From contig CATKZK010000001.1 in assembly GCA_949841325.1 (NCBI GenBank), positions 4,733-68,732 of the forward strand: a DNA stretch of 64,000 nt. The letters run 5' to 3'. How positions within the stretch are numbered: position 1 is the stretch's first letter; each line of letters begins with the position of its first letter. Below the pieces are notes generated by a model. It saw only the letters and a list, made by a program, of their open reading frames with translations. It ran no database searches and was not told where the DNA came from. A program made the position numbers and the translations under genes. The stretch comes from an uncultured Bacilli bacterium. Its GTDB lineage: Bacteria; Bacillota_I; Bacilli_A; RF39; UBA660. This document shows, piece after piece, positions 437-51,476 of this stretch.

Positions 437-3256
437 GTGATGATTATGGATAAAATTATCGTAAAAGGTGCAAGAGAAAATAATTTAAAAAATATTAATA
501 TTGAGATTCCTAAAAATCAGCTTGTTGTTATAACAGGTGTATCAGGATCAGGGAAAAGTAGTTTAGCTTTTGATACCATCTATGCAGAGGGACAACGAAG
601 ATATGTGGAGAGTCTATCGGCTTATGCGAGACAATTCTTAGGAGGTTCTGAGAAACCAGATGTCGATTCAATTGAAGGGTTAAGTCCCAGTATTTCAATT
701 GATCAAAAGACGACAAATAATAATCCACGTAGTACCGTAGGAACGGTAACAGAAATCTATGATTATCTGCGACTCTTGTTTGCTCGTATTGGAACACCTT
801 ATTGTCCTAATCATCATATTCCTATTAATAGTCAAAGTATTGAAGAAATGACAAATCGTATTATGGAATATGATGAGGGAACGAAACTAGAGGTTTTATC
901 ACCTGTTGTTCATGGAGAAAAAGGAACACATAAGGATTTATTTGATCAATTGCGAAAAGACGGTTTTACGCGTGTAAGAGTAAACGGTACAGTGCAAGAT
1001 TTAAACGGAGAAATTATACTAGAAAAGAATAAAAAAGACAACATTGAAGTTGTTGTAGACCGTATTGTTTTATCTGATACAGAGAGGAGTCGTCTTTTTG
1101 AAGCGATAGAAACAGCAACAAAAATGGCAGATGGAAAAGTATTGATCAATATTATTGGTGAAAAAGAAATTCTCATGAGTGAAAAATATGCTTGTCCAGA
1201 TTGTGATTTTTCTCTTCCTGAATTAGAACCAAGAATATTTTCGTTTAATGCCCCTTATGGAGCTTGTACAATGTGTAAGGGACTTGGAATTACAAAACAT
1301 ATATCCCTAGATTTATTGATTCCTGATAAATCTTTATCAATTTTAGATGGTGCTATTAAGACTATGACTATTGATGATAATATAGAAACCAAACGTTTAT
1401 TTACGATTGCAAAGTCTTTAAAAATTGATTTAACAAAACCCATTAAAGATTTGAAAAAAGACCAACTAGATATTATTCTTTTTGGAACCAATCAAGAATT
1501 TAATTTTGAATATACTTCTAAAAATGGAAATAAACGATATACGACAGAAAGCTATGAAGGAGTTGTAGTCAATCTAGAGAGAAGATATATTGAAACCAAT
1601 AGTGCTTGGATACGTGATTGGATTGATGGTTATATGGAAGAAACTACGTGTCCGATTTGTAAAGGCTCAAGACTACAAGAAGCAGTTTTAACTGTAATGG
1701 TTGGAAAAAAGAATATCTACGAAGTGACGAATTTGTCCATCAAAGAGTTAATTTTATTTTTTGAACAATTAAAACTAAATAAAACACAGATGGAGATAAG
1801 CAATTTAATTGTTAAAGAGATTAAATCGCGCTTAAACTTTTTAGATAATGTGGGACTCAATTATTTAACTCTTTCACGTCCAGCATCAACTTTATCAGGA
1901 GGAGAAGCTCAGCGTATTCGTTTAGCTACCCAAATTGGTTCTCAGTTAAGTGGCGTTTTATATGTACTTGATGAACCAAGTATTGGACTTCATCAAAAAG
2001 ACAATGACCGTTTAATTGCCAGCTTGAAGAATATGCGTGATTTAGGAAATACACTTATTGTTGTAGAACATGATGAAGATACCATGAGAGAAGCAGATTA
2101 TTTAGTAGATATTGGTCCTGTTGCAGGAGCAGCTGGAGGATATGTTGTTGCTGCAGGAACACCAAAAGAAGTGATGAAAAATGAACAGTCAATAACAGGA
2201 AGATATTTAGCAGGAAAAGAATGTATTGAAGTTCCTAAAAAGCGTCGTAAAGGAAATGGTAATTTTATCAAAATTAAAGGTGCTAAAGAGAATAATTTAA
2301 AAAATATCAATGTTAAATTTCCTTTGGGAACATTTACCTGTGTTACGGGTGTATCAGGTTCGGGAAAATCCTCTTTAGTAAATGAAATTTTATGTAAAGC
2401 CTTACAGAAAAGTGTCTATCATTCAAAAGTGACAATTGGAAAACATAAGAGTATAGAAGGATTAGAATTAGTCGATAAAGTGATTCAAATTACGCAAGAC
2501 CCAATTGGAAGAACACCTAGAAGTAATCCAGCAACATATACAGGAGTATTTGATGACATTCGTTCTGTTTTTGCCGAGATGAAAGAATCTAAAATTCGCG
2601 GATATGATAAGGGAAGATTTTCTTTTAACGTCAAAGGCGGAAGATGCGAAGCTTGTTGGGGAGATGGAGTTAAAAAAATAGAGATGCATTTTTTACCAGA
2701 TGTCTATGTGCCTTGTGATGTTTGTCACGGAACACGTTTTAACTCGGAGACGCTAGATATTAAATTTAAAGGAAAAAATATTGCGGAAGTTTTAGATATG
2801 CGAGTAGAGGAAGCGATTGATTTCTTTGCCAGTGTACCTAAAGTAAAAAACAAATTGCAAATCTTAATGGATGTTGGTCTTTCTTATGCTAAATTAGGAC
2901 AATCTGCTCCTACTCTTTCTGGAGGAGAAGCAGGTCGTGTAAAACTTGCTAAAGAATTACAAAAAAAACCTACAGGGAAATCAGTCTTTATCTTAGATGA
3001 ACCGACAACAGGTCTTCATGCTGAAGATATCAAAAAATTATTACATATTCTTAAGAGAATTGTTGACAATGGAGATACTGTAGTTGTCATTGAACATAAT
3101 TTAGATGTGATAAAAGTGGCTGATTATATTATCGATTTAGGGCCAGATGGTGGAGATGGAGGAGGAACGATTGTTGCAACAGGGACTCCAGAAGCTATTG
3201 TTAAAACAAAAGAGTCTTATACGGGAGAATTCTTAAAACGTGTTTTAAATAAATAA
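437..3256 (+). CDS. uvrA: excinuclease ABC subunit A (UvrA)
   Basis: two ABC ATPase modules (GVSGSGKSSL twice; LSGGEAQRIRLA / LSGGEAGRVKLA), Zn-finger cysteines and a typical UvrA N-terminus; true start probably the ATG at 446. Confidence 0.95.
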   Translation: MMIMDKIIVKGARENNLKNINIEIPKNQLVVITGVSGSGKSSLAFDTIYAEGQRRYVESLSAYARQFLGGSEKPDVDSIEGLSPSISIDQKTTNNNPRSTVGTVTEIYDYLRLLFARIGTPYCPNHHIPINSQSIEEMTNRIMEYDEGTKLEVLSPVVHGEKGTHKDLFDQLRKDGFTRVRVNGTVQDLNGEIILEKNKKDNIEVVVDRIVLSDTERSRLFEAIETATKMADGKVLINIIGEKEILMSEKYACPDCDFSLPELEPRIFSFNAPYGACTMCKGLGITKHISLDLLIPDKSLSILDGAIKTMTIDDNIETKRLFTIAKSLKIDLTKPIKDLKKDQLDIILFGTNQEFNFEYTSKNGNKRYTTESYEGVVVNLERRYIETNSAWIRDWIDGYMEETTCPICKGSRLQEAVLTVMVGKKNIYEVTNLSIKELILFFEQLKLNKTQMEISNLIVKEIKSRLNFLDNVGLNYLTLSRPASTLSGGEAQRIRLATQIGSQLSGVLYVLDEPSIGLHQKDNDRLIASLKNMRDLGNTLIVVEHDEDTMREADYLVDIGPVAGAAGGYVVAAGTPKEVMKNEQSITGRYLAGKECIEVPKKRRKGNGNFIKIKGAKENNLKNINVKFPLGTFTCVTGVSGSGKSSLVNEILCKALQKSVYHSKVTIGKHKSIEGLELVDKVIQITQDPIGRTPRSNPATYTGVFDDIRSVFAEMKESKIRGYDKGRFSFNVKGGRCEACWGDGVKKIEMHFLPDVYVPCDVCHGTRFNSETLDIKFKGKNIAEVLDMRVEEAIDFFASVPKVKNKLQILMDVGLSYAKLGQSAPTLSGGEAGRVKLAKELQKKPTGKSVFILDEPTTGLHAEDIKKLLHILKRIVDNGDTVVVIEHNLDVIKVADYIIDLGPDGGDGGGTIVATGTPEAIVKTKESYTGEFLKRVLNK

Positions 3257-3315
3257 GTATAGCGGTTGTCTATGCTTTTTATTTTTGTTATACTTATTGT
3301 AATGGAGGGTAAGGT

Positions 3316-4029
3316 ATGGAACAACCAAGACAGAACAGTTTATTTTATTTTCAAATGGAGGATAAGATTGCCAAATTATTCATACATATAAATATCGCTG
3401 GATTAGAAGAAATTATCGAGCAAATGGTACTAAATTGTAGTAGGATAATACGCGTAGAAAATGCTTTAGAGACTACGTATTGTTTCAGAAATTATGATAA
3501 GGATTCTCATTATAGAGATGTAAGTGAACATGTTTTAACACGACCTTATTATGATAAGGACGATGTAGATATTTATTGTCCAGGAAAACGAATTGTTTCC
3601 TATACACATTATGAATATCCTTATTTTATAGATCATTTAATGGACATTGTAAATAGAGTAAAAAGAGGTGAAAGCGTAAAGCTTAATCTCAAATTCCCCG
3701 AAGAAAGCAAAGAAGATTATTTAGAAAAAATAAGAAAAGGTACAATGAAAATAAGAGAGGAAACAGCAAATGTGATTGAGTTTCCTAAAAAGGACTTATG
3801 TGAATATTATGATCAAATTCTAAATTGTATATCCGTTTTCGGAGTTGAAATAATGCCCATAGAAATCGTTCGAGATTTCATGCAATACTTTGAGTTTATT
3901 CGACAAGAAAATTTGGAGTTTCCTCAAAACGTTTTGCAAATGGAAAGTATGGATCCTCTATTAAGAGAACATTTCATTCGTCAAATGAAAGCGCTTGAAG
4001 GTAAATCAAAGAAATATGATATTTATTAA
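3316..4029 (+). CDS. hypothetical protein
   Basis: 237-aa ORF, no recognised motif. Confidence 0.45.
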   Translation: MEQPRQNSLFYFQMEDKIAKLFIHINIAGLEEIIEQMVLNCSRIIRVENALETTYCFRNYDKDSHYRDVSEHVLTRPYYDKDDVDIYCPGKRIVSYTHYEYPYFIDHLMDIVNRVKRGESVKLNLKFPEESKEDYLEKIRKGTMKIREETANVIEFPKKDLCEYYDQILNCISVFGVEIMPIEIVRDFMQYFEFIRQENLEFPQNVLQMESMDPLLREHFIRQMKALEGKSKKYDIY

Positions 4030-4049
4030 AAGATTGAAAGATTGTTTAG

Positions 4050-4085
4050 TAGTATCGGCTTTATATGGTTGATACTATTTTTATT
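4050..4085 (+). terminator. candidate rho-independent terminator
   Basis: TAGTATC-N14-GATACTA stem followed by TTTTTA. Confidence 0.4.
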
Positions 4086-4175
4086 AGATGAAAGATACTT
4101 TTAGTAGAAAAATATCCTGTGATAATTGAAATTCGATGGGGAATACTTTATAATGTATGCTAGGAGAGTGATATA

Positions 4176-4991
4176 ATGAATCCCGTATTATTTACGTATG
4201 GAAACTTTGAAATTCGATGGTATTCTGTATTAATACTAATAGCTGTTTTTTTATCTTATTTCTTTATAAAGAAAGAGGCAGGACGTTTTGGCGTAAAAAA
4301 AGATTTTACTTTTAATCTTATGTTTTGGACCTTAATCTTTGGTATTATAGGGGCACGACTTTATTATGTTTTATTTAATTGGAGTGAATATGCAATCAAT
4401 CCAATTAGTATTTTAAAAATATGGGAAGGAGGACTTGCCATTCATGGTGGTTTGATTGCAGGTTTAATTACTGTACTTTTATACACCAAAAAATATCATA
4501 TGCGTACCATTAGAATTCTTGATTTTATTGTAGTACCTTTGTTATTAGCTCAAGCGATTGGAAGATGGGGGAATTTCTTTAATGGGGAAGCTCATGGAGC
4601 AGCAACGACAGTAGAAGCTTTAAAGAGTCTTTTTGTTCCTGATTTTGTTATTAAAGGAATGGTTATTGACAATATTGTCTATATGCCAACTTTCTATTTT
4701 GAATCTCTTGTTTGTTTTGGAGCTTTTATAATTCTTTTAATTATTAGAAGACTTAAATATTTAAAAGTCGGAACTTTAACGGCAGCTTATCTTCTGATTT
4801 ATGGCGTTTTAAGATTCTTTATCGAGTTTAGTAGAACAGATGCACTACTATTAGGAGGATTTAAGATAGCCCAGATTGTATCGGTTATCATGGCATTAGT
4901 CGGACTTTCTATCCTTATGTTTAATAGTCGTAAAGGAAGATTTGAAGATTTATATAATGACAATGCAAATGTAAGCGATATAAAATTTTAA
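4176..4991 (+). CDS. lgt: prolipoprotein diacylglyceryl transferase
   Basis: multi-TM protein with the conserved Lgt signature GRWGNFFNGEAHG and HGGLIAG. Confidence 0.85.
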   Translation: MNPVLFTYGNFEIRWYSVLILIAVFLSYFFIKKEAGRFGVKKDFTFNLMFWTLIFGIIGARLYYVLFNWSEYAINPISILKIWEGGLAIHGGLIAGLITVLLYTKKYHMRTIRILDFIVVPLLLAQAIGRWGNFFNGEAHGAATTVEALKSLFVPDFVIKGMVIDNIVYMPTFYFESLVCFGAFIILLIIRRLKYLKVGTLTAAYLLIYGVLRFFIEFSRTDALLLGGFKIAQIVSVIMALVGLSILMFNSRKGRFEDLYNDNANVSDIKF

Positions 4992-5059
4992 ATAAAACGA
5001 TTAAATTTCATTGAATAACATTTTGTTATTTGATAAGATAATGATAAGGAGATAAGAAT

Positions 5060-5311
5060 ATGACAGTACAAGAAAAAATTAATTTATTAACAGCAAACTT
5101 ATCCGCTTCAGAGATAGACTTGCCACAAGAAGAATACGAAGAGATGAAGCGCATAACAGAGATCGCTTCAGAATATTTTATCGACGGAGTTATTTCATCT
5201 ATTGATCCAGAAATGTTATTGGAGACTTATGAGAAGTATGATTCTATTTTAGATGAAAAGTTAGCACTATTAAAGAAAAGAGAAGAAAACCAAATACATC
5301 AAATGATATGA
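5060..5311 (+). CDS. small acidic hypothetical protein
   Basis: 83-aa ORF preceded by an AAGGAG RBS. Confidence 0.4.
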   Translation: MTVQEKINLLTANLSASEIDLPQEEYEEMKRITEIASEYFIDGVISSIDPEMLLETYEKYDSILDEKLALLKKREENQIHQMI

Positions 5312-5416
5312 TGTGTTTTTTTTTGAGAAAATCTGTAAATGTTACTTCTTTTAAGACAAACGTTGATACTTTTTCTGTTAATATTCATAGATTATACTAG
5401 AAAGGAAAGTGAAAAA

Positions 5417-6340
5417 ATGAATAATTGTCAATGTGGAAGATGTAATTCATGTTGCAATCCAAAACAAGGGCCGACAGGACCAACAGGAGCAAGAGGTGCT
5501 ACGGGTGCAACAGGCGCTACAGGATCAATCGGAGCAACAGGACCACAAGGAATTCAAGGACTTCAAGGAGTTCCAGGAGTAATGGGTGCAACAGGGCCAC
5601 AAGGAATTCAAGGTATTCAAGGGCCAACAGGACCAGTTGGACCAATTGGAGCAACAGGAGAAATCGGAGCAACAGGAGCAACGGGTGCAACAGGCGCAAC
5701 GGGAGCCACAGGAGAAGCAGGACCACAAGGAGTCCAAGGGCCAACAGGAGCCACTGGAGCAACAGGAGCAACAGGAGCCACTGGATTACAAGGAATCCAA
5801 GGTATTCAAGGACCAACAGGACCACAAGGTGAAGCTGGAGAAATAGGACCAGCTGGACCAACGGGAGCAACAGGAGCAACAGGAGCTACTGGAGCAACAG
5901 GAGCTACTGGAGCAACAGGAAGTGCACCAAATTTAACCATTGGAACAGTAACAACAGGAGTAAATGCTGCAGCTACTATCACAGGAACATCACCTAATTT
6001 TGTTCTAAATCTAGTATTACCTCAAGGGCCAACAGGACCAACAGGAGCAACAGGATCAACAGGAGCCACGGGTGCAACAGGAGCAACAGGTGCAAGTGAT
6101 ACAATCACAGTAAGAAATACAACAACTGGAGCTGCAGGAACCAATGCAACTGTAACCGATACTACAGGAAGTCCTAACCATATTTTAGACTTTGTCATTC
6201 CTCGTGGATATGATGGAGTAGATGGAGAAATTGGACCACAAGGAATCCAAGGTATTATTGGACCAACAGGACCAGTAGGTGCAACAGGAGCAACAGGTGC
6301 ATCTGGAAGATGTCGTTGCTGTAACAATGAAAATGAATAA
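5417..6340 (+). CDS. collagen-like triple-helix repeat protein with Cys-rich N- and C-terminal caps and two Thr-rich non-collagen insertions
   Basis: long runs of [12 protein letters not shown] (Gly-X-Thr/Gln) triplets; N-terminus [17 protein letters not shown]; C-terminus [11 protein letters not shown]; start chosen at the ATG at 5417, which has an AAAGGAAAG RBS. Confidence 0.85.
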
Positions 6341-7406
6341 ACTAAAAGTAGTAGTTTATGCTATTTCTAAAAATGAAAGTGCTTTTGTAGAACGATGGGT
6401 TCAATCGATGTCTGAAGCTGATGAAATTTATGTATTAGATACAGGATCAACCGATGATACTGTATCTAAATTAAAAGCATTAGGTGTTCACGTTTTCGTG
6501 AAAGAAATCAAACCTTGGAGATTTGATGTCGCTCGTAATGCTAGTTTAGATTTAGTTCCTATGGATACAGATGTCTGTATCTGTACAGACTTAGATGAAA
6601 TCTTAGAAAGTGGATGGCGTGAAAAGATAGAAAAGTGTTGGAATCAATCTAATCGATTGCGTTATAAATACAATTGGTCGATAGATGACCAGGGAAAGCC
6701 AGTCGTCACTTTTCTATATGAAAAAATTCATGACCGTAAACATTATAGATGGATCTATCCCGTTCATGAAGTACTGGAGTGCTCTTTAGAGAATGAAAAA
6801 GTAGAAGTAAATGAAGAAATTGTTCTAAACCATTATCCAGACAAAACAAAATCACGTGCATCATATTTACCATTACTCGAATTATCTGTTAAAGAAAATC
6901 CAAACAATGACCGAAATCTTCATTACCTTGGTCGGGAATATATGTACTATCAAGAATGGAATAAATCAATTGATACATTACTAAAACATCTAAAACTCGA
7001 AACGTCCACTTGGAAAGAAGAACGTTCTGCCTCTATGCGCTTTATTTCAAGATGCTATTTAAACTTAGGTCGTTCTGATGAAGCTAAATATTGGCTAAAT
7101 AAAGCGATAGAAGAAAGTCCACATCAAAGAGAAGGATACGTAGAATTAGCACTACTAGAATTTTCTAATCACAATTATTTTGAAGTGATTATCAATTGTC
7201 TTAAGGCAAAGCAAATTCTAAAAAACGAAATGATTTATATTAACGAACCATTTTGTTGGAATGAAACTATTGATGATTTATTGTCTATTAGCTACTATTA
7301 TTTAGGGCTACGTGATTTAGCTATTTATCATGTCAATAAAGCTTTAGAGTATAATCCTCAAGATAAACGTTTGCAAAAAAATAAAGAGATTTTTGAATTA
7401 ATTTAA
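6327..7406 (+). CDS. family-2 glycosyltransferase with C-terminal TPR repeats
   Basis: GT2 N-terminal fold ([10 protein letters not shown]...[11 protein letters not shown]), TPR-like helical C-terminus; the start overlaps the collagen gene's stop. Confidence 0.75.
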
Positions 7407-8764
7407 TTCAATATCTCTTTTTTTAATTGTTTTTCTATCTTGCTTGAATATAGTGCATGTAGCAAATGATAAATAACATGTAGTTGAGGCCAGGTGTAAT
7501 ATTCTCTTTCTTCTATTGAAGAATTAAGTGATAAGTTTTCATTCAGCCTATGTTTAAAGTATTCTCTTATTTTGGTCTTTTCATTCGGGGTCAGCTCGCT
7601 TAAAAAATCATGATGTATATTGATAAACTTTTTATAGTGTTCCCCATTTAATTTTACAAAAAAATCATTTAACTTTTCCATTTCAAAATCTTGTTCAGCA
7701 TCAATCGAGAAAAGCTGTGCACCATATTCATTTAATACGGTATTTTTAAAAAGAAGAAATTCTTCTTGCTCCAATGTTTGCTCTATATGTTTGATTATTC
7801 TTGGTAAAATATCTTTTTCTTCTTCACAAATAGAAGTATCTGTTGTTAAGAGATAGTGCTTTAAAATTTCCAATTCAATTGGATCTTTGTATTGATTTTT
7901 TAAATAAAGATAAAGGATTAATTGTATTGGCTGAGTGGGTTTTAGAAGATCCCAAGAAATAGTTTTAGGAACCTCGCATTTTTTTCCCAAAAAGTCTGAT
8001 GCTACAAGATTCCTTACATGTATTATTGTATCTGACTCTATATTTGAAATATATGTATGACTTATGTGAAATTCATTGGCAATCTCTCTCATTGTCTTTT
8101 GCTCTATAATTCTTGAAAAAAGGATATAATATTCAAATGGCAAAAGCGTTTTCTTTAAAGTATAAAGAAGAGGAAGAATAGTTTCAGAATCAATGACTTT
8201 TTCCGTAAAATCTTCATTATCAGGAATTCTCTTTGTTTTTTTGTTTTTCTTTGCAAATTCATAAGATAATACTTGAAGATGATTATAGTAACACAAATGA
8301 TTGAACACAGAATCCTTCACTTTGAGTTCTTTTTTTAGTTCTTCGTCTGTTAATAGAGACTCTGTCTTCTTTCTCTTTATTCCCTCAAAAGAGAGTAATT
8401 TATCAAAGATGTTAACGGGAAAAGAAAAATCATAATCAAGGATTTCTAATTCTTTTCTAATTTTTCTATGAATCAACAAAGCTGCGAGTGTCGAAAATGC
8501 GCCTTTTTCTGGATCAAAATGCATAATAGCTTTCATCAAACCTTCAATACCTGCAAAAGTAATATCCATTTTATCTTGACTATTTCGATTCTTGAAATAA
8601 GGAGATGCACAATGTTCAACAAGATGAAGATTGTGTTTAATCAGCTTTTTATAAGCTTCTTTATCTCCGTTTTGTGCTTTTTCAAATAAAAGAGCTGATT
8701 CTTTTGGTTTTAAAGGAGGAAACCTTTTTATTTCTCTTAAATAGTTTGCATAGATATCTTTCAT
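7403..8764 (-). CDS. sigma-70 family RNA polymerase sigma factor with a ~190-aa C-terminal extension (paralog B)
   Basis: region 2 (HNLHLVEHCA...; DITFAGIEGLMKAIMHFDPEKGAFSTLA) and region 4 HTH (TMREIANEFHISHTYISNIE); 453 aa. Confidence 0.7.
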   Translation of the reverse strand: MKDIYANYLREIKRFPPLKPKESALLFEKAQNGDKEAYKKLIKHNLHLVEHCASPYFKNRNSQDKMDITFAGIEGLMKAIMHFDPEKGAFSTLAALLIHRKIRKELEILDYDFSFPVNIFDKLLSFEGIKRKKTESLLTDEELKKELKVKDSVFNHLCYYNHLQVLSYEFAKKNKKTKRIPDNEDFTEKVIDSETILPLLYTLKKTLLPFEYYILFSRIIEQKTMREIANEFHISHTYISNIESDTIIHVRNLVASDFLGKKCEVPKTISWDLLKPTQPIQLILYLYLKNQYKDPIELEILKHYLLTTDTSICEEEKDILPRIIKHIEQTLEQEEFLLFKNTVLNEYGAQLFSIDAEQDFEMEKLNDFFVKLNGEHYKKFINIHHDFLSELTPNEKTKIREYFKHRLNENLSLNSSIEEREYYTWPQLHVIYHLLHALYSSKIEKQLKKEILN

Positions 8765-10149
8765 TTTAATTTCTTCTCTTTCTTATTTTTTTGAATAGGC
8801 TTTAAATCAAGAAGTAGAATATTACATGCTTGATTTAATTTTTTCCATTTTATACCATTTCTTTCTTCTAAAGTTGAATGCAAGGTAAGAGGTAAAAAAG
8901 CTTCGGCAAGGACCACTTTAAGAATTCTTTTTTGATCATCACGAACTTTATATTTTTCTGTTAATGTCGTTATATTTAGTGGAGCATATTGTTCTAGCAA
9001 CTGATTCATCAAATCAATATCAAAGTCATAATCTACGTTAATACCTATAATTTCTGTTTTATATTCATCAATTAATTGATTGTGGAATGCTTGATAAAGA
9101 GGATCCTTAGAAAGTGTAGAACAAAGCTCTTTAAAATAAGCAAGCTTGCTTTGGTATAAAGAAAAAGGAAGATTAAAGTAATTCGCATATTCTTTTGGAC
9201 TACAATCATAAGTAGGAATCAAATATTCTCTTAACATTTTTACATCATCCCCATTTAAATTGAGATTTTTTAAATAAAGGTAAAGTGTAATATTTCTAGG
9301 ATTTGGTGGTACAACAGAAAGAGAGGGTGAACAGTCTTTTATTCCATTGTTTTTAATATACTCTTGTATTCTTTTTCTCGTGCGATTTGCTTTTTGCTCT
9401 ATTGCCTGTCTTTCAATACCATTAAATTCTTGCGCAATTACCTCATATCGCTTTTCTAATAAGAAGTGATGGTAAAAGCAATAATAGTAGTGTGGCTCTA
9501 CAATCTTTTTAATCGTATGTAAAATATTTCTAACGTGATAAGAAGAGATGATATCATGACAAATATCTGTATCATTGGCAATGATATTTTCAAGAGAATC
9601 ATCATTTCCTTCTAATACTTCATCGAAACTTAGACCACGAGAAAGACGATCTCCTTTAAAAGTATCAAGTATTTCTTTTGAAACACATATTTCTTTCATC
9701 ATTTCTTGATCATTTAATTCAGGCAAACGTAGATTTTCGCGATTCTCTTTAATCCCATTATATACGTTAAACTTTTTCCATTTATCTATAGGCATATAAA
9801 GTGTCGTGTGGATAAGTTTTAATTGTTCTTCTAATTCTTGTTTTATTGATGGATAGGCATAAGTTGTAAATGCGCCTTTTTCAGGATTATAACTGTTGAT
9901 TGCATTTGTAAGTCCTAAGTTAGCTGCATTCACTAGATCCATTCGTTGATGTCTTTGTACTTTTGAAAAAACATCAACGGCCATTTTCCATGCAAGTCGT
10001 AAATTATGATAAAGAAGTTTATCCTTTGCTTCTTCTGCTTCTTCTTTATCTCCTGCTATCATCTTGCAAGCCAACTCATATTGTTGACTTGGTTCTAACA
10101 ATGGTATACTTTTAACTAGCTTTTTATATTCTTCATAAATATCGGTCAT
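8761..10149 (-). CDS. sigma-70 family RNA polymerase sigma factor with a ~190-aa C-terminal extension (paralog A)
   Basis: region 2 (LLYHNLRLAWKMA...; MDLVNAANLGLTNAINSYNPEKGAFTTYA) and region 4 (VIAQEFNGIERQAIEQKANRTRKRI); shares the LYLYLKN motif with paralog B; 4-nt overlap with the downstream paralog. Confidence 0.7.
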   Translation of the reverse strand: MTDIYEEYKKLVKSIPLLEPSQQYELACKMIAGDKEEAEEAKDKLLYHNLRLAWKMAVDVFSKVQRHQRMDLVNAANLGLTNAINSYNPEKGAFTTYAYPSIKQELEEQLKLIHTTLYMPIDKWKKFNVYNGIKENRENLRLPELNDQEMMKEICVSKEILDTFKGDRLSRGLSFDEVLEGNDDSLENIIANDTDICHDIISSYHVRNILHTIKKIVEPHYYYCFYHHFLLEKRYEVIAQEFNGIERQAIEQKANRTRKRIQEYIKNNGIKDCSPSLSVVPPNPRNITLYLYLKNLNLNGDDVKMLREYLIPTYDCSPKEYANYFNLPFSLYQSKLAYFKELCSTLSKDPLYQAFHNQLIDEYKTEIIGINVDYDFDIDLMNQLLEQYAPLNITTLTEKYKVRDDQKRILKVVLAEAFLPLTLHSTLEERNGIKWKKLNQACNILLLDLKPIQKNKKEKKLK

Positions 10150-16778: not shown

Positions 16779-16865
16779 CTTAAGTGCTAAAGTTTATTTT
16801 AGTATGTGGGAGGGAACGCGGATTAGCCCAAAACCACAAGCGAAAATACGAAAGGAGTGTTTTAC

Positions 16866-17453
16866 GTGGCAAAAGAAGTCGTTAAGAAGATTAAATTACA
16901 AATTCCTGCTGGAAAAGCAACACCAGCTCCACCAGTTGGTACAGTTTTAGGACCTGCAGGGATTAATTTACAAGAGTTCTGTACAAAATATAATGACGCA
17001 ACAAGAGATAAAATGGGGGATATTGTCCCAGTAGAAATCTCAGTTTATGAAGATAGAACTTTTGATTTTATCCTTAAAACTCCACCAACAGCAGAATTAA
17101 TCAAGAAGTATGCTAAGATTAAATCTGGATCTAAAAAAGGTGCTCACGAAATTGTAGCAACTTTATCAAAAGATGATGTAAAAGCGATTGCTGAAATCAA
17201 GCTACCAGATTTAAATGCCTATAATGTTGAAGCTGCTATGGATATTGTAGCAGGAACTGCTAGAAATATGGGAGTTGCAATTAAGGGAATGAATGATGCG
17301 GAGTTAGCTGAAGAAGCAGCTCAAGCGGCAGAAGCTGAAAAAGAAGCAGAGAAACGTGAAGCTAAATTAGAAGCAATGGAAGAATCTGCTAAAGAAGAAG
17401 CAACTGAAGTTGAAGTCATTACTGAAAAAGCAGCTGACGAAACTGAAGAATAA
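16866..17453 (+). CDS. rplK: 50S ribosomal protein L11 with an unusual ~55-aa Ala/Glu-rich C-terminal extension
   Basis: L11 core ([23 protein letters not shown]...); probable GTG start at 16866 after an AAAGGAG RBS; the tail [27 protein letters not shown]... is absent from canonical L11. Confidence 0.9.
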
Positions 17454-17501
17454 AATAAGTAAAATTATATCCGCTAATAAACCACGATTGGAGGTATAGA
17501 A

Positions 17502-18200
17502 ATGAGAAAGTCAGGAAAGAAATATGTGGAAGCTTCTAAAAAAGTTGAAAAGAATAAAAACTATTCTTTAGTAGAAGCAATTAAGTTAGCTAAAGAGACA
17601 AGCATTACTAAATTTGATAGTTCTGTTGAGTTAGCAGTAAAACTTAATATCGACACGAAGAAAGCTGATCAACAATTAAGAGGTTCTCTTGTATTACCTA
17701 ATGGTAATGGTAAAACAAAAAGAATTTTAGTTTTAGCAAAGGGAGCTCAAGCTGAAGCAGCAAAGAACGCTGGTGCAGATTATGTTGGTGAACAAGAAAT
17801 GATTGATAAAATCGCGAATGAAAATTGGTTTGATTTCGATTGTTTAATTGCAACGCCAGAAATGATGCCTGCTTTAGGAAAAATTGGTAAAATTTTAGGA
17901 CCAAAAGGACTAATGCCAAATCCTAAGACAGGAACAGTAACACCTACGCCTGAGCGTGCTGTTGAAGACGTAAAAAAAGGAATGATCGAATATCGTGCAG
18001 ATGCTTATGGAAATATCCATTGCTCTGTTGGTAAAGTATCTTTCGATGATAAAGCTTTATTAGAAAATATTCAATATGTTCTTACAACTTTAGTGAGAGT
18101 AAAACCCGCTACAGTAAAAGGAAAATATATTAAGAATATTTCTGTTTCAACAACTATGGGTCCTGGAATCCATGTTGACCAAGAAACAGTTGACATGTAA
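17502..18200 (+). CDS. rplA: 50S ribosomal protein L1
   Basis: typical L1 sequence throughout, 232 aa. Confidence 0.95.
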   Translation: MRKSGKKYVEASKKVEKNKNYSLVEAIKLAKETSITKFDSSVELAVKLNIDTKKADQQLRGSLVLPNGNGKTKRILVLAKGAQAEAAKNAGADYVGEQEMIDKIANENWFDFDCLIATPEMMPALGKIGKILGPKGLMPNPKTGTVTPTPERAVEDVKKGMIEYRADAYGNIHCSVGKVSFDDKALLENIQYVLTTLVRVKPATVKGKYIKNISVSTTMGPGIHVDQETVDM

Positions 18201-18214
18201 TAAAAACATGTGTT

Positions 18215-18358
18215 ATATTAATTGAAATAAAAAACGAGTACCGAAGACAGTAGGGGACAACATTGTCTTAATTATCCTACCGAGGGAGAGTTATATTCTT
18301 TTTAAAAGTATAGAACTTTCCTTTTGTGGAAAGTTTTTTATATAAAATAAGGAGGACA
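18215..18358 (+). promoter_or_regulatory. ribosomal protein L10 leader with attenuator hairpin
   Basis: ~145-nt untranslated leader ending in AACTTTCC-ttttgt-GGAAAGTT plus a T run, just upstream of the rplJ RBS. Confidence 0.45.
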
Positions 18359-18361
18359 TAT

Positions 18362-18859
18362 ATGGCAAGCGAGAAGATTCTTAATGCAAAAAAAGAAGTC
18401 GTAGCAGAAATTACAGATAAGGTAAAGAATTCTGAAAGTGTTATTCTTTTCCAATATGCTGAAAGTTCAGTTGCTGACATGCAAGAATTACGTAGAGACT
18501 TAAAAAAAGTCGACAGTGAAGTAAAAATCCATAAGAATACTCTTGTAAAAAGAGCCTTAGATGACTTGAACATTGATTTAGCAGAGTATCTAGAAGGACC
18601 AAATGCCATCGTTTTTGGTAAAACTTTATTAGAGCCTATTAAGGCAATTGATGAGTTTGCTAAAAAACACAATAATATTAAGCTTGTTGCTGGTATTATA
18701 AATGGCGAAGTTGTTACACTTGATACAATTAAAGAATATGCATCAATTCCATCTATGGAAGGATTACTTACAATGTTTGCTGGTGGATTGATAGAACACG
18801 TAAAAAATCTATCTATTGCACTTAATTTATATGCCGAAAAATTAGGTGAAGAAAATTAA
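18362..18859 (+). CDS. rplJ: 50S ribosomal protein L10
   Basis: L10 family sequence; start at the ATG after AAGGAGGA. Confidence 0.9.
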   Translation: MASEKILNAKKEVVAEITDKVKNSESVILFQYAESSVADMQELRRDLKKVDSEVKIHKNTLVKRALDDLNIDLAEYLEGPNAIVFGKTLLEPIKAIDEFAKKHNNIKLVAGIINGEVVTLDTIKEYASIPSMEGLLTMFAGGLIEHVKNLSIALNLYAEKLGEEN

Positions 18860-18874
18860 TAGGAGGAGATTATA

Positions 18875-19243
18875 ATGGCAAAATTATCTACAAATGAAAT
18901 TATTGACGCAATTAGTGAAATGACTATTTTAGAGGTTAAAGATCTAGTTGATGCAATGAAAGAAAAATTTAATGTTGACCCTAGTGCTGTTGCTGTAGCA
19001 GCTGCACCTGCTGCAGGAGCTGGAGCTGAAGAATCAAGCACAAAAACTGTTGTATTAAAAGATGCTGGAGCATCTAAGATTGCAGTTATCAAAGTGGTTC
19101 GTGAAATTACTGGTCTAGGATTAGTAGAAGCGAAGGCTTTGGCTGATAATGGTGGAAACATTAAAGAAAACGTTTCTGCTGATGAAGCAAATGAAATTAA
19201 AGCTAAATTAGAAGAAGCAGGAGCTACTGTAGAATTAGCTTAA
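18875..19243 (+). CDS. rplL: 50S ribosomal protein L7/L12
   Basis: Ala-rich hinge followed by the conserved C-terminal domain ([19 protein letters not shown]). Confidence 0.95.
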
Positions 19244-19249
19244 TACGAA

Positions 19250-19274
19250 AGACTCACATTGGTGAGTTTTTTTG
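19250..19274 (+). terminator. rho-independent terminator after rplL
   Basis: GACTCAC-attg-GTGAGT followed by a T7 run. Confidence 0.7.
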
Positions 19275-19335
19275 TGGAAACCTTTACAAAAAACAAATAA
19301 AATGCTAGGATAGGGCGACGAAGGGGCAAGAAAGT

Positions 19336-20106
19336 ATGAAAATAGAACTGATTGATGGAAAGACCGCTGTTGTTTTTGAGAATATAGGAGAGCATTGTAT
19401 CATCAAAAATAGTGATGGAGCCATGGTTGTCCGAAATGAAAAAATGGGAATGACAATTACGATGAATCCGATAGTTAATGCTCAAGAATCAATTGAACAG
19501 ATAAATAAGGCAACAGAAAACTTCATGGAAGTTTCAAAAGAAGAAATAATAAAGATATGTGATACTTGGTTTAAACTGTTTGAAGATATATTTGAAAGTT
19601 ATTATCTCTTGTCAGAAGAGACATATAACCAATCAAAAATATATATAAAATTTATAACAGATGAAGACAAATACGAAAAAATAGCAATAAGGATGTCTTT
19701 AGAGGAAGAAGAAAGCCAATATAGTATGCAACTTAGAATTCCTGATTGTAATATAGGAGCATATCTAATGCTTAAAGTTTTTTCCTTTCTGCAAGAAAGT
19801 TTTGAAGAAGAATTCACATTAGAAGAGGGAGAATATATTGCTACAGTCGATTCAGTTGAACGCGTGATTTTGCATATTCAAGATGAGTATTATGGCTTCA
19901 AACAATTGATGATGATTCTTTATGCAAGTTGCCTTAATTCCCTACAAGTTGATAGAAGTCAAGCATGCTTTATTCTTATGAATTGTCGTGAATTGATAAA
20001 GAGTCAGACGATTGGAATTTCTTTTAGAGAAGATATCGAAAATGCTATAAATCACCAAAAACAGTTAAAGGAAAAAATAAAACAACTTTATTTAAAAGAA
20101 AACTAA
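19336..20106 (+). CDS. hypothetical protein (acidic, 256 aa)
   Basis: ORF with AAGGGG RBS; sits where rpoB/rpoC lie in most Firmicutes. Confidence 0.45.
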   Translation: MKIELIDGKTAVVFENIGEHCIIKNSDGAMVVRNEKMGMTITMNPIVNAQESIEQINKATENFMEVSKEEIIKICDTWFKLFEDIFESYYLLSEETYNQSKIYIKFITDEDKYEKIAIRMSLEEEESQYSMQLRIPDCNIGAYLMLKVFSFLQESFEEEFTLEEGEYIATVDSVERVILHIQDEYYGFKQLMMILYASCLNSLQVDRSQACFILMNCRELIKSQTIGISFREDIENAINHQKQLKEKIKQLYLKEN

Positions 20107-20190
20107 TTGCTAAAGAGAATGGATAATTGATTCTCTTTCTTTTGTTTACAATGCTTGTAAACCTTGTTAAAATAAAAGTAATAATAGGAA

Positions 20191-20550
20191 GTGATCTGTT
20201 TGAAAAAAATGATGTTGGCTTGGATGTTCTTAGTTGTCCTTTTAGTTGGAGGATTGTTGTTTATTGGTGTGCGATTTAAAGATTCGATTCGCGAGTATGA
20301 AATTTTAGAAATTGATATGAATGAATCAGCGAATGCCTTTTTAAAATTGAGAGAAATTAACCTTAATCCTGGAGAAAGTATGAAAATATCCGCTAATGAA
20401 TTGATAGAAAGTGGTCTTTTAAAGTCAATGGAGGTAGGAAGTGATACTTGTGAGGGCTATGTTTTTGTGAAAAAACAGGGCAAAAATATGAATATAGAAT
20501 CGAAGATAAAATGCTCTCAGTATACTTCTTTGGAATACGAAGAAGAGTAA
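20191..20550 (+). CDS. hypothetical membrane-anchored or secreted protein
   Basis: N-terminal TM/signal stretch, 119 aa. Confidence 0.4.
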   Translation: MICLKKMMLAWMFLVVLLVGGLLFIGVRFKDSIREYEILEIDMNESANAFLKLREINLNPGESMKISANELIESGLLKSMEVGSDTCEGYVFVKKQGKNMNIESKIKCSQYTSLEYEEE

Positions 20551-20719
20551 ATACATATAATAGGTAGTAAACAGATGTAAAAATGCGTTTTATATATTGA
20601 CTTTTTAAGAAATGATTGATATATTATAAGCGCGTTTGAAATTAGGTTCTGCTTAGGTGGAACCTAGTTTTAAGGGGAATTTGATACACCGGGAAGTGTG
20701 TATATAGAAAGGAAATGTT

Positions 20720-21133
20720 ATGACGACTATAAACCAATTAGTAAGAAAGAAAAGAGCTAAGAAAACTCGTAAGGGAAAAAGTCCAGTATTAAATGTTGGA
20801 TTTAACTCAATGGAAAGAAAAGCTACGAAGACTGACCATCCACAAATGCGTGGTGTTTGTACTCGTGTAGGAACAAAGACACCAAAGAAACCTAACTCAG
20901 CTTTGCGTAAATATGCTCGTGTACGTCTATCAAATGGCCGTGAAGTCGATACATACATTCCAGGAGAAGGACATAACTTACAAGAACATAGTGTTGTACT
21001 TATTCGTGGAGGACGTGTTAAAGACTTAATCGGTGTTCGTTATCATGTAATTCGTGGTGCATTAGATACACAAGGTGTTAATGAACGTAAAAAAGGTAGA
21101 AGTAAATATGGTACAAAGAAACCTAAAAATTAA
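20720..21133 (+). CDS. rpsL: 30S ribosomal protein S12
   Basis: canonical S12 sequence ([11 protein letters not shown]...[10 protein letters not shown]). Confidence 0.95.
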
Positions 21134-21158
21134 AAATATATAAGGAGGAAAGAAAAAT

Positions 21159-21626
21159 ATGCGTAAAAGACGTGCTGAAAAGCGTGACGTTTTACCAGAT
21201 CCTATATATAAATCAAAAGTTGTTACGAAATTAATTAACACCATTATGAAAGATGGAAAAAAGGGAACAGCAGAAAAGATTTTATATGGGGCATTTGATA
21301 TCGTTCGTGAAAAATTGAACGAAAATCCAATGGACGTATACACTCGTGCGCTTGAAAATATTAAACCAGTGTTAGAAGTAAAATCTCGTCGTGTAGGTGG
21401 AGCGAATGTTCAAGTTCCAATCGAAGTAAGCGAAGAGAGAAGCCAAGCACTTGCATTGCGCTGGTTAGTAAATTATGCTAGAAATGGTCATGGAAGAACA
21501 ATGGCTGAAAAATTAGCAAATGAAATTATAGATGCAGCAAATGGAACAGGCGGAGCTGTTAAAAAACGTGAGGATACTCACAGAATGGCAGAAGCAAATA
21601 AAGCATTTGCTCATTATAGATGGTAG
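21159..21626 (+). CDS. rpsG: 30S ribosomal protein S7
   Basis: canonical S7 sequence. Confidence 0.95.
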
Positions 21627-21637
21627 GTGGTTTTTAA

Positions 21638-23710
21638 ATGGCTAGAGACGTTACAATCGATAAAATTAGAAATATTGGTATCATGGCTCATATTGATGCT
21701 GGTAAAACTACAACTACAGAGAGAATTCTATACTTAACTGGTAGAACTCACAAAATTGGTGAAACACACGATGGTGCTTCACAAATGGACTGGATGGAAC
21801 AAGAGCAAGAAAGAGGTATCACAATTACTTCTGCTGCTACCACATGTCATTGGAATGGTTATAGGTTAAATATCATAGATACTCCAGGACACGTAGACTT
21901 CACAATCGAAGTACAAAGAAGTTTAAGAGTACTTGATGGAGCAATTGCCCTAATCGATGCTCAAGCTGGAGTAGAGCCTCAAACAGAAAATGTTTGGAGA
22001 CAAGCAAATGAATATAAAGTTCCAAGAATGATTTGTGCTAACAAGATGGAAAAAATGGGAGCAGATTTCTATTTCAGTTTAGGAACAATCAAAGATAGAT
22101 TAGGAGCGAATGCAGCGCCTATCATGTTACCAATCGGTGCAGAACAAGATTATATTGGTTATGTTGACTTGGTTACAATGAAAGCATACAAATATGATGG
22201 AACTGATAAACAAGAATTAGAGGAAATTGAAATTCCTGCAGATATGACTGCTAAGTCAGAAGAATACAGATCTAAATTAATTGAAGCTGTAGCTGACTTT
22301 GATGAAGAATTAATGATGACTTACCTTGATGGTGGAGAAATCACAGTAGATACATTAAAGAAAGCGATTCGTACTGCTACATTGTCTGTTGGCTTCTTCC
22401 CAGTATTATGTGCTGATGCCTTAGGAAATAAAGGTACTCGTACATTACTTGATGCTGTTATTGATTACTTACCAGCACCAACTGATATCGAAGCTATTGA
22501 ATGTACAGATAAGAATGGAAACGATGTTAAGCGTCATCCAAGTGATTCTGAACCGTTTACTGCCTTAGCATTTAAGATTATGACAGATCCATTCGTTGGA
22601 AGACTTTCATTCTTCCGTGTTTACTCAGGTAAATTAACTAGTGGTTCTTATGTTCTAAACTCTACAAAGGGAGAAAAAGAAAGAATCGGACGTATCCTTC
22701 AAATGCATGCTAATAATCGTACAGAAATTACAGAAGTATATGCTGGAGAAATAGCTGCTGCTGTTGGACTTAAGAATACAACAACTGCTGATACATTGTG
22801 TGATGAAAAGAACTTCTGTATCATGAAAGGTATGGAATTCCCAGAGCCAGTTATCGATATTGCAGTAGAACCAAAGAGTAAAAATGATCAAGACAAGATG
22901 GCTATTGCTATTCAAAAACTTGTTGAAGAAGATCCAACATTAAAAGTTAAAACGGATTCTGAAACTGGACAAACTGTATTATCTGGTATGGGAGAGTTAC
23001 ACTTAGATATCATTGTGGATCGTATGAAACGTGAATTTGGTGTTGAAGTAAATAAAGGTAGACCACAAGTTCAATATCGTGAAACGATTACACAAGCTGC
23101 GGATTGTGAAGGTAAATATATTAAACAATCTGGTGGACGTGGACAATATGGGCATGTTTGGGTTAAATTTGAACCTAATCCAGGTAAAGGATATGAATTT
23201 GTTGATGGAATTGTAGGTGGAGTTGTTCCTCGTGAGTATATTCCGGTAACAGATAAAGGATTACAAGAAGCAATGCAAGGTGGTATTCTTGCTGGATATC
23301 CAATGGTTGATATCAAAGCAACATTATTTGATGGATCATACCATGATGTAGACTCATCAGAAATGGCCTTCAAGATTGCAGCTTCAATGGCTTTGAAAGA
23401 AGCTAAGAACAAATGTCAAACCGTTCTTCTAGAACCAATCATGAAAGTTGTTGTTGATGTTCCAGAAGAATATATGGGAAATGTCATGGGAGATTTAACT
23501 TCTCGCCGTGGTAGACCACTTGGACAAGAATCTATAGGAAATACCTTAAGAATTATCGCTATGGTACCATTATCTGAAATGTTTGGATATGCAACCGATT
23601 TAAGAAGTAATTCTCAAGGACGTGGAACTTTCCAAATGGAAAAAGATCACTATGAAGAAGTTCCAAAATCAATCGCTGAAGAAATTATTAAGAAAAACAG
23701 CGTAAATTAA
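21638..23710 (+). CDS. fusA: elongation factor G
   Basis: G-domain motifs [18 protein letters not shown]; 690 aa. Confidence 0.97.
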
Positions 23711-23785
23711 TGAATAATTACTTGATTTAATATCAAGAATTAGATAAAATAAATTTGTTATAAGAAAAGAAAGGAAAGAAAAATT

Positions 23786-27067: not shown

Positions 27068-27197
27068 ATTAGTTAATCCTATTATAATAAAATTATAGTA
27101 AAAATCAAGTAAAATAGGGTATAGTTTTTATGAAAAAAAATTGTATTTTTTTACACAAAGCCTTTATTTTGAAGCATATAAGTAAGATTTTAAAGTT

Positions 27198-27221
27198 AAT
27201 TTACTACCAATTTACTACTTT
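27198..27221. repeat. 24-bp repeat AATTTACTACCAATTTACTACTTT, copy 1 (internal tandem TTTACTAC-CAA-TTTACTAC)
   Basis: identical 24-mer at 28929-28952; possible operator site. Confidence 0.6.
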
Positions 27222-28928: not shown

Positions 28929-28952
28929 AATTTACTACCAATTTACTACTTT
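28929..28952. repeat. 24-bp repeat AATTTACTACCAATTTACTACTTT, copy 2
   Basis: identical to 27198-27221. Confidence 0.6.
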
Positions 28953-51431: not shown

Positions 51432-51476
51432 AGAAAAAATAAGGTATAATAAATTCTTAAGAAAGAGGGCCTATAC

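Follow-up and report, generated by a model that had tools for sequence, protein, structure and literature searches.

The two adjoining genes described here, which encode a collagen-like protein and a glycosyltransferase, are a distant, rearranged version of BclA3/SgtA, the spore-hair system of C. difficile, and by analogy with it the enzyme probably adds sugar to its collagen-like partner. They lie in a 64,000-nucleotide stretch of DNA, referred to as the window, from an uncultured gut bacterium of the Bacilli with a small genome. We consider it fairly probable that the pair consists of a BclA-family surface fibre and a dedicated SgtA-type O-glycosyltransferase, most likely expressed late in the mother cell and assembled at the spore surface. 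This extends the SgtA/BclA3 pairing, known from experiment only for C. difficile in the literature consulted, to uncultured small-genome gut Bacilli.

The first gene (5417..6340, + strand) encodes a collagen-like protein of 307 aa with 78 Gly residues, counted from the ATG at 5417. The sequence-only reading had described it as a Gly-X-Y protein, which is borne out by 71 triplets in three runs (aa 18–170, 204–227 and 264–299) and by a Pfam Collagen (PF01391) match of 112.1 bits (cut-off 27.2, E 1e-32). The runs form collagen block 1 (5468..5926, +, 51 triplets), block 2 (6026..6097, +, 8 triplets) and block 3 (6206..6313, +, 12 triplets). The DNA of block 1 is made of tandem repeats of 9 bp, 54 bp and 72 bp, and the length of this block differs between orthologues in whole-triplet steps. 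Thr occupies the Y position in 37 of the 71 triplets, and the protein contains 36 G-[PA]-T triplets.

Judged from conservation, the real start of the gene is the ATG at 5417, since its ribosome-binding site AGAAAGGAAAG (5399..5409, +; tagaaaggaaagtga in the orthologous loci) and the MNNC... beginning of the protein are kept in orthologues, while a 26-aa extension is not. This extension, a hydrophobic leader, comes with the ATG at 5339 chosen by the gene callers; we discarded that start, as the extension lacks conservation and overlaps the conserved promoter and ribosome-binding site.

The Cys residues are confined to the two ends (residues 4, 6, 9, 12, 13, 299, 301 and 302), with five before the first triplet and three at or just after the last, in agreement with the eight terminal Cys counted earlier. 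The N-terminal cap (5417..5467, +; 5 Cys in 17 aa) abuts the first triplet, and its Cys cluster is kept in orthologues, in relatives of 80–190 aa and in C. difficile BclA3. The C-terminal cap (6308..6337, +; Cys 299, 301 and 302) starts inside the last triplet and is kept in loci L008 (GRSCCDCNNE), L009 (NCCRCGEE) and L013 (RCRCCNNDNE); orthologues with a globular C-terminal domain do not have it. Neither a signal peptide nor a membrane span nor an LPXTG motif was found in the protein, whose maximal Kyte-Doolittle average over 19 residues is 1.0. In the NCBIfam scan it matched SclA, SclB, Lcl and HxsA4 only, all below threshold, and no exosporium leader; the models of Scl1/Scl2-type LPXTG adhesins reached 88–101 bits against cut-offs of 325–400, and the N-terminus is not hydrophobic. 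Moreover, Pfam gave no match to the BclA_C/C1q-like head (PF18573), and the C-terminal domain of BclA3 (AIIPFASG...GYASAGI) is absent. The missing head domain and the C-terminal Cys cap are the unusual traits of the window protein.

The second gene (6327..7406, +) encodes a soluble enzyme of 359 aa, a predicted SgtA-like protein glycosyltransferase. That this neighbour is a GT2 enzyme with TPR repeats, and hence related to glycosyltransferases, was upheld by its Pfam matches to Glycos_transf_2 (29.9 bits, cut-off 23.3) and TPR_2 (33.2 bits, cut-off 27). A GT-A/GT2 domain occupies about aa 7–170 and a helical TPR domain about aa 180–358; the motifs DTGSTDD and D-L-D (at residue 88) are present, and the confident AF2 model (pLDDT 92.6) shows a TPR solenoid C-terminal to a GT-A domain. 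C. difficile SgtA, taken from locus L101 (3846–4922), aligns with it at 25% identity over 351 columns (E 2e-21, residues 6–356 of the window enzyme against 2–352), by which the two enzymes are homologous along their full length. SgtA is a 358-aa enzyme with a GT-A domain and four TPR that places beta-O-GlcNAc onto Thr of BclA3 G-P/A-T peptides (PMC7157674). By extrapolation, the window enzyme would use UDP-GlcNAc to place GlcNAc on Thr/Ser in peptides of the collagen region, the donor sugar and the acceptor residue both being extrapolated given an identity of just 25%.

Among solved structures, the top matches of the window enzyme are SunS/ThuS (Foldseek E 3.5e-15, TM 0.66, 17% identity), in which a GT2 catalytic domain is likewise followed by TPR repeats and whose peptide substrate is encoded nearby. 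These enzymes glycosylate peptide Cys, and the presumed substrate in the window carries two dense Cys clusters, so that the window enzyme might be an S-glycosyltransferase acting on the cap Cys, alone or besides Thr, and governing the disulfide-capable Cys. We regard this as very unlikely. The identity to SunS/ThuS is 17% versus 25% to SgtA, a proven Thr/Ser O-GlcNAc transferase, and the Cys content differs among the partner proteins of enzyme homologues (Cys clusters being checked in the non-phage partners): several are without the C-cap, and all partners are rich in G-x-T. SunS and ThuS act on small bacteriocin precursors, whereas no glycocin-like gene is present at the window locus, where the pair is neighboured by sigma-like genes and xth and not by glycocin precursor, immunity or export genes.

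The two genes adjoin on the + strand with an overlap of 14 nt (ATG 6327 against the collagen stop TAA at 6338–6340), as noted before; the ATG at 6333 is equally possible as the enzyme start. In orthologues the genes overlap by as much as 20 nt or lie as much as 46 nt apart, which confirms their tight linkage, and we infer that the window pair is one transcription unit. A collagen-like gene lies directly 5' of the enzyme homologue in L002, L005, L008, L009, L012, L013 and the high-GC locus L001, and in L011 an inserted transposase alone parts the two. Of the 80 best viral-contig homologues, 29 have a run of at least 8 triplets within 4 kb, on the enzyme's strand in 27 cases; neither of two control loci, L097 and L098 (near-identical assemblies of one region that together span 40 kb), contains such a run. 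Across the partners of enzyme homologues, Thr is found at 56% of Y positions (2202 partner triplets). The pair was found again in the independent assemblies L099 and L100, and at least seven further genomes carry a diverged form of it; it is therefore not an assembly artefact. For its Gly-X-Y region, a low-complexity sequencing artefact had been raised as a possibility.

If the adjacency were meaningless, the enzyme would act elsewhere, for example on a wall polymer (cf. TarS/TarP) or on flagellin (cf. GmaR), and structural matches to TarP, TarS, RmlT and GmaR, weaker than those to SunS/ThuS, point in this direction. This explanation is extremely improbable, as the pairing of enzyme and collagen-like protein recurs across wide sequence and GC distances, the genes overlap in the window, the enzyme is homologous to SgtA, and a Pfam survey of most larger window ORFs showed no flagellar genes. 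Enzyme and collagen-like substrate travel jointly across Bacilli genomes, high-GC contigs and phages.

The closest known counterpart is the C. difficile sgtA-bclA3 unit (CD3350-CD3349), also a two-gene unit encoding a G-P/A-T-rich collagen-like protein and a GT-A/TPR enzyme of about 358 aa. The enzymes are homologous end to end, and neither protein of either pair carries an export signal; in the window none was found on the enzyme, as on its partner. BclA3 has CDCHHCCPPSC just before its collagen region. For this comparison, CDCHHCCPPSCV-GPT of P0300, which we take to be C. difficile BclA3 (its N-terminus was matched in the protein collection), was set by eye against the window N-cap. The gene order is reversed, however, with the collagen gene leading in the window. 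BclA3 differs further by a 45-aa N-terminal region, as opposed to 17 aa in the window protein, and by a C-terminal domain of about 170 aa, where the window protein has two phage-tail-like modules of about 36 aa and the C-terminal Cys cap. The hosts differ as well, C. difficile belonging to the Clostridia and the window to a small-genome Bacilli lineage that is uncultured.

BclA, L-BclA and F-BclA (ENA tip fibrillae) of B. anthracis/B. cereus are collagen-like, Thr-rich, glycosylated spore hairs, and the window protein is likewise collagen-like and Thr-rich. A BclA_C head is present on the L005 protein from the same genomic slot (Pfam 42.9 bits, cut-off 38), whereas the window protein has neither this BclA_C/C1q head nor the exosporium leader peptide. 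B. anthracis bclA is neighboured by a rhamnose-synthesis (rml) operon, and no GT2-TPR enzyme is known to adjoin it. The view that Cys caps and partner enzyme make the locus distinct is borne out for B. anthracis BclA but not for C. difficile BclA3: since the latter has a pre-collagen Cys cluster and SgtA, there is no novelty in the N-cap or in the partner enzyme. The broader analogy with exosporium collagen proteins and their dedicated glycosyltransferases holds.

The collagen blocks are separated by two Thr/Asn-rich segments, at 5927..6025 (+; aa 171–203) and 6098..6205 (+; aa 228–263). The sequence-only reading had placed them close to these coordinates but had taken them for loose insertions; from their sequences, they are instead two copies of one conserved module of about 36 aa. 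Copy 1 matches phrog_21962 ('tail protein', E 1.4e-6). Copy 2 is nearly invariant in four orthologues and hardly varies among them, whereas the lengths of the collagen blocks shift. The module matches phage minor-tail PHROGs with E-values from 3e-14 to 1e-6. Pfam gave no match to the two segments, and a PDB sequence search returned nothing meaningful for them or for a 35-sequence module profile. A tblastn search of the module region against GenBank phages gave no match either, probably owing to low-complexity masking, although PHROG profiles did match.

The same segments had been proposed as O-glycosylation targets, that is, as flexible interruptions bearing the main glycosylation sites. They are indeed Thr-rich and contain N-L-T, N-T-T and N-A-T, and the title of a study cited in PMC12357932 speaks of domain-dependent glycosylation in BclA of the B. 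cereus group. We nevertheless find this proposal quite improbable, as the segments are module copies with a fixed pattern, nearly invariant among orthologues in the case of copy 2, the module is common to phage tail proteins, and its N-X-T sequons are missing from the family consensus. The proven acceptors of SgtA, the characterised homologue, are Thr within collagen-region G-P/A-T triplets, and sgtA adjoins bclA3 (PMC7157674). The window protein has 36 triplets of this kind.

The preceding 83-aa gene closes with a terminator-like hairpin (ACATCA-7 nt-TGATGT, then a T run; 5296..5324, +), which parts it from the collagen operon. The hairpin was missed by the consensus scan because of its AT-rich stem, and a hairpin with T-run in the same place is clearer and GC-richer in L002, L005, L008 and L009. 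Downstream of the hairpin lies a sigma-K-type promoter-like motif, AC-N16-CATAGATTA (5368..5394, +), which ends 23 nt before the ATG. CATAnnnTA is found at -22 to -32 in all ten related loci, with AC 15–18 nt upstream of it in seven of them, and at that position in none of the 64 other ORF starts in the window. The full AC-N16 motif has a chance expectation of about 2.4 per spacing over 128 kb (both strands); it is low in information, overlaps a TATACT/TATAAT-like hexamer and is not separable from a sigma-E motif with certainty. No sigma-70-type promoter was found upstream of the ribosome-binding site in 5312–5416, the sole match (5398–5425) covering that site and the start codon. The C. difficile sgtA-bclA3 operon likewise carries a sigma-K-type motif upstream, AC-N17-CATATATTA, and bclA1-3 and CD3350 depend on sigma-K (PMC3789822). 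Such a promoter before a spore-hair-like operon is a testable marker of late mother-cell expression in lineages whose sporulation is inferred from gene content only.

Several observations speak against a role at the spore surface. The window protein has neither BclA_C nor a BclA3-type C-terminal domain nor a Bacillus exosporium leader, and both the enzyme family and the module of about 36 aa are frequent in phages. The window enzyme matches phrog_13126 (E 5e-112) and has homologues in jumbo phages as well as in no fewer than 552 IMG/VR stretches. In L029, a homologue lies between a collagen-like tail-fibre protein of 779 aa and an endolysin, the phage family members being 41–52% identical. The pair could therefore be a fibre module of phage origin, made up of a domesticated protein of the tail-fibre type and its glycosyltransferase, which in a non-sporulating host would have its place on a phage-like particle, vegetative cells or some other non-spore structure. 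Phage loci in which a GT2-TPR enzyme lies near collagen-like tail fibres (phrog_13126; L029, for instance) do share the enzyme family with the window, and their collagen-like neighbours are Thr-rich as well. Moreover, no sporulation genes were found in 84 kb (a Pfam survey of most larger window ORFs and of 10 kb past each end). This null result says little, since the genome probably exceeds 1 Mb, as suggested by a homologue on a contig of 1.4 Mb. In favour of the spore reading, uncultured small-genome Bacilli orders are predicted to have retained sporulation genes in reduced sets; against it, spo0A is missing from some small-genome Bacilli families (PMC10868615).

On balance, a phage-derived module outside the spore appears rather unlikely. 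The pair occupies a conserved core-genome slot in several species (uvrA-lgt-...-xth-mrnC-rlmB-sigH-secE-nusG) with no phage genes alongside, and the motif conserved upstream of it belongs to the sigma-K type known from sporulation. Partners in sister genomes carry domains known from spore surfaces, namely the BclA_C head of L005 and, in L011, a C-terminal domain that shares 57% identity with its counterpart in C. difficile BclA3 (E 3e-57). A protein without an export signal, furthermore, would reach the surface only through cell lysis or assembly in the mother cell, and the absence of a signal peptide, membrane span and LPXTG motif fits proteins assembled inside the mother cell.

For the spore-surface fibre that we favour, we propose the following sequence of events. 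The TPR domain would grip the unfolded or trimerising collagen chain, while the DXD site of the enzyme, with a UDP-sugar (by analogy UDP-GlcNAc, with Mn2+), would O-glycosylate Y-position Thr of G-P/A-T triplets in the cytoplasm, a location that fits the absence of an export signal on both proteins. The chains would then wind into a triple helix some 40–60 nm long, in which the two modules may act as register-setting trimeric beta-knots, providing nucleation points in place of a C1q-like head. At the C-terminus, C-x-CC could form an interchain cystine knot. In the GPCCG of vertebrate type III collagen, Cys just after the last triplet lock three chains in register; the window protein similarly has adjacent Cys right after its last triplet, although its putative knot reads GRCRCC and belongs to a bacterial protein without hydroxyproline. 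The N-terminal C-x-C-xx-C-xx-CC might anchor the fibre at its base through cross-links to Cys-rich proteins of the outer spore layers. A comparable coupling to Cys-containing partners has been proposed for L-BclA on ENA fibres and for a Btk homologue, whose N-termini are rich in Cys and carry a CC motif (PMC11362473, PMC12357932).

A bolder proposal, which we think unlikely, is that the headless rod with reactive Cys clusters at both ends becomes an end-to-end covalent polymer or a staple of two spore layers, and not a free hair, after glycosylation by an SgtA-like enzyme that possibly also caps some Cys with sugar as SunS does, all in a small-genome gut Bacilli lineage whose sporulation is predicted from gene content only. 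If this were true, the locus would both mark and give access to an unseen type of spore surface that uncultured gut bacteria assemble from components common to phage tail fibres.

Finally, close relatives have exchanged what the fibre carries at its outer end, be it a C1q-like head, a BclA3-type domain, or phage-tail-like modules that in some cases come with a Cys knot and in others lack it, a pattern expected of a surface structure under host or phage selection. The headless, double-capped form may also interest bacterial-collagen engineers, as it suggests a minimal way of setting the register and locking the trimer without a globular domain.

The collagen-like open reading frame lies on the + strand and closes with a TAA stop at 6338-6340. 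With the ATG at 5417 as start codon, the product is 307 aa long and matches Pfam Collagen at 112 bits. A Cys-rich piece of 17 aa precedes the first Gly-X-Y triplet, and the collagen part follows in three blocks: 51 triplets (aa 18-170), 8 triplets (aa 204-227) and 12 triplets (aa 264-299) that run into the C-terminal Cys piece. Two non-collagen segments separate the blocks (aa 171-203, 33 aa; aa 228-263, 36 aa), and all eight Cys are confined to the two end pieces. Thr occupies 37 of the 71 Y positions, and X positions are mostly Ala (30) and Pro (18). The ATG at 5339 chosen by gene callers, which adds a hydrophobic 26-aa leader, was rejected; we take 5417 as the true start because the ribosome-binding site and an MNNC start are conserved in orthologues, where the extension is missing. 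Read from 5417, the product lacks a signal peptide, a membrane span and an LPXTG motif. The second gene begins at ATG 6327 (or 6333), within the 3' end of the collagen gene, and ends at 7406. The open reading frames, the Pfam matches and this 14-nt overlap bear out the sequence-only reading, which had described a Cys-capped collagen-like protein coupled to a GT2-TPR gene.

The enzyme matches Pfam Glycos_transf_2 and TPR_2, both above threshold. Its AlphaFold2 model, resting on 40 homologues, is confident (pLDDT 92.6), with a GT-A domain at residues ~7-170 and, after it, a TPR solenoid at 180-358; residues invariant among homologues include DTGS.D and D-L-D-E. Among solved structures it matched best SunS and ThuS, which glycosylate glycocin peptides (E 3.5e-15, TM 0.66, 17% identity), ahead of pure TPR proteins, TarP/TarS and GmaR. 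The C. difficile locus was located through the BclA3 N-terminus and the two enzymes were compared directly: residues 6 to 356 align with 2 to 352 of SgtA (25% identity, E 2e-21). They are distant homologues that share one architecture. SgtA (358 aa, a GT-A domain plus four TPRs, encoded beside bclA3) transfers beta-O-GlcNAc from UDP-GlcNAc, with Mn2+ preferred, to Thr and also Ser in peptides of the BclA3 collagen region (PMC7157674). The G-x-T triplets that recur in collagen-like partners are a known SgtA target. The earlier analogy with BclA-type proteins and their dedicated glycosyltransferases was right: this is a distant relative of the sgtA-bclA3 unit of C. difficile, rearranged and carried by an uncultured gut Bacilli member, and its collagen-like fibre is very probably glycosylated on the Thr of G-x-T by the SgtA-like partner.

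The pair recurs in independent assemblies, which shows that it is not an artefact. Close enzyme relatives (54-90% identity) derive from gut metagenome bins, and three related loci (L002, L005 and L008) share a core-genome slot, uvrA-lgt-small gene-[collagen-like gene]-[enzyme]-xth-mrnC-rlmB-sigH-secE-nusG-rplK. In these three and in loci L009 and L013 the gene preceding the enzyme is collagen-like with a Cys-rich N-terminus; in L012 it is collagen-like with two Cys only. Judged by eye, these bacterial partners are Thr-rich, with recurring G-x-T triplets. In the more distant L011, only an inserted transposase parts the two genes; the intervening 468-aa transposase-like frame (within 793-5083, opposite strand) appears to have entered the operon recently. 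No collagen-like partner occurs within the 2.4 kb of sequence of L010. The two genes overlap by as much as 20 nt or lie as far as 46 nt apart, indicating that overlap is dispensable and tight linkage required. The closest GTDB match, L013 (CAZWKF010000045.1, 90% identity), has the same collagen-like gene with identical caps; its bin carries the label Muribaculaceae, probably through misbinning, as every other relative has a Bacilli label. Outside the clade, a high-GC GenBank record of 5.2 kb (MT838491, 'UNVERIFIED: Bacteriophage sp.') carries a collagen-like frame directly 5' of a 51%-identical glycosyltransferase homologue. It also holds a 441-aa frame, aminotransferase-like by eye; no phage gene was apparent among its frames on inspection by eye, and the record may be bacterial rather than viral.

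Partner proteins in sister genomes diverge at their far end. The L005 partner bears a Pfam BclA_C head (42.9 bits, cut-off 38) with weak matches to ExsF/BxpB, and that of L011 ends in a domain 57% identical to the one of C. difficile BclA3 (E 3e-57). Two modules plus a Cys cap at the C-terminus are shared by the window protein and those of L008, L009 and L013; the L002 and L012 partners have the modules and lack the terminal Cys. The Cys caps and the partner enzyme had been thought to set this protein apart from BclA. As a claim of novelty this is not supported: BclA3 carries CDCHHCCPPSC directly ahead of its first GPT triplet, much like the N-terminal piece here, and SgtA is a homologous partner. 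L-BclA and a Btk homologue likewise begin with a Cys-rich stretch that includes a CC motif, and this stretch is proposed to link their fibrils to ENA subunits carrying Cys (PMC11362473, PMC12357932). The N-cap and the enzyme partner were thus known before, and the variation lies in the C-cap and the missing globular head.

Upstream, a hairpin with a T-run, clearer in orthologues, closes the preceding gene. Between it and the ribosome-binding site lies a sigma-K-type motif, AC-N16-CATAGATTA (5368-5394), comparable to AC-N17-CATATATTA upstream of C. difficile sgtA; no sigma-70-type promoter was found 5' of the collagen-gene ribosome-binding site. Each of the ten loci compared, the distant L011 and L012 and the stand-alone genes of L014 and L015 among them, has CATAnnnTA at -22 to -32, and in seven an AC lies 15-18 nt 5' of it, across a spacer of unconserved sequence. 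Over the two strands of the window, the full motif should turn up about 2.4 times per spacing; the probability that CATAnnnTA lands in a 14-nt interval is ~0.6-0.9%, and it occurs at the corresponding position of none of 64 other open reading frame starts in the window. At sigma-K promoters of C. difficile the -35 region is AC and the -10 element resembles that of sigma-E, and bclA1-3 and CD3350 are sigma-K dependent there (PMC3789822). Since the motif is conserved, rare and sigma-K-like, it points to a mother-cell sporulation sigma factor for the collagen operon, which, the motif being short, may also be sigma-E.

No sporulation genes were found in the window or in the 10 kb past each end. 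In a comparative study, RF39, ML615J-28 and part of RFN20, uncultured orders of small genomes, were predicted to retain reduced sporulation gene sets, and other families have lost spo0A (PMC10868615). The missing export signals on both proteins fit mother-cell assembly and also assembly of a phage-like particle. The main rival to a spore-surface fibre is a phage-derived fibre serving outside sporulation, for both the enzyme family and the module are abundant in phages. IMG/VR gave at least 552 matches; in 29 of the 80 best of these viral-contig loci, a run of at least eight triplets lies within 4 kb, on the enzyme's strand in 27; no such run occurs in two control loci (40 kb in total, near-identical assemblies of one region) or in the rest of the window. 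Thr makes up 56% of Y positions in the viral partners (2202 triplets), and SgtA-like enzymes may often glycosylate the collagen-like fibres of phages. In L029, a 46-kb viral contig (IMG/VR 3300029846_000267, 546-6564), a 779-aa collagen-like tail-fibre protein is followed by two small frames, the enzyme homologue, again GT2-TPR, and then an endolysin; other viral loci with a collagen-like run fall in the range L017-L041. With the promoter motif on the other side, we lean towards a spore-surface location.

The two non-collagen segments had been read as Thr-rich insertions for O-glycosylation. This is not upheld: SgtA modifies collagen-region peptides, and the segments are homologous to one another and to a conserved module of hundreds of metagenomic proteins, which hits PHROG profiles for minor tail and tail proteins of phages (E 3e-14 to 1e-6); sequence searches gave no Pfam or PDB counterpart. 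Module 2 is almost invariant among four orthologues, and the collagen blocks vary by whole-triplet indels that mirror the 9-, 54- and 72-bp tandem repeats of the window gene. The modules would form small trimeric beta-domains that set the register of the helix. Many module-bearing proteins (P0177-P0296) form a large family of 80-190 aa, with an N-terminus of 1-7 Cys, short Gly-X-Y runs and two modules, and may be minimal spore-surface fibrils. Members at L014 8001-8414 and L015 8001-8435 stand alone on the chromosome, each with CATAnnnTA ~30 nt ahead of its start, and the latter lies ~8 kb from YlbD_coat/YlbE genes.

Convergent with the glycosyltransferase gene are two paralogous sigma-70-like genes (7403-8764 and 8761-10149, both -; 453 and 462 aa), absent at this position in sister genomes L002 and L005. 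Both products have region 2, a ~200-aa C-terminal extension and a phrog_351 match, and the first adds a weak match to region 4/HTH. In NCBIfam the first comes closest to SigK and the second to RpoS, each at a score far under the cut-off. A 237-aa frame without Pfam or NCBIfam match (3316-4029, +) separates uvrA and lgt, which are directly adjacent in the same sister genomes. At 16857-24955, rplK-rplA-rplJ (with, presumably, rplL) and a 256-aa frame without Pfam matches precede rpsG-fusA-tuf, and rpoB and rpoC are not at their usual site between these clusters. The gene at 25004-27067 (-), whose 687-aa product matches several helix-turn-helix families (HTH_23, HTH_28, Trp_repressor-like), borders a stretch at 26000-30000 of 25-26% GC, against ~31% elsewhere, which may be acquired DNA. 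Finally, scattered genes for Fic/DOC (41829-42965, -), DUF7192 and TelA (50451-52649, +) and Abi_2 (59907-60839, +) may represent defence or stress islands.
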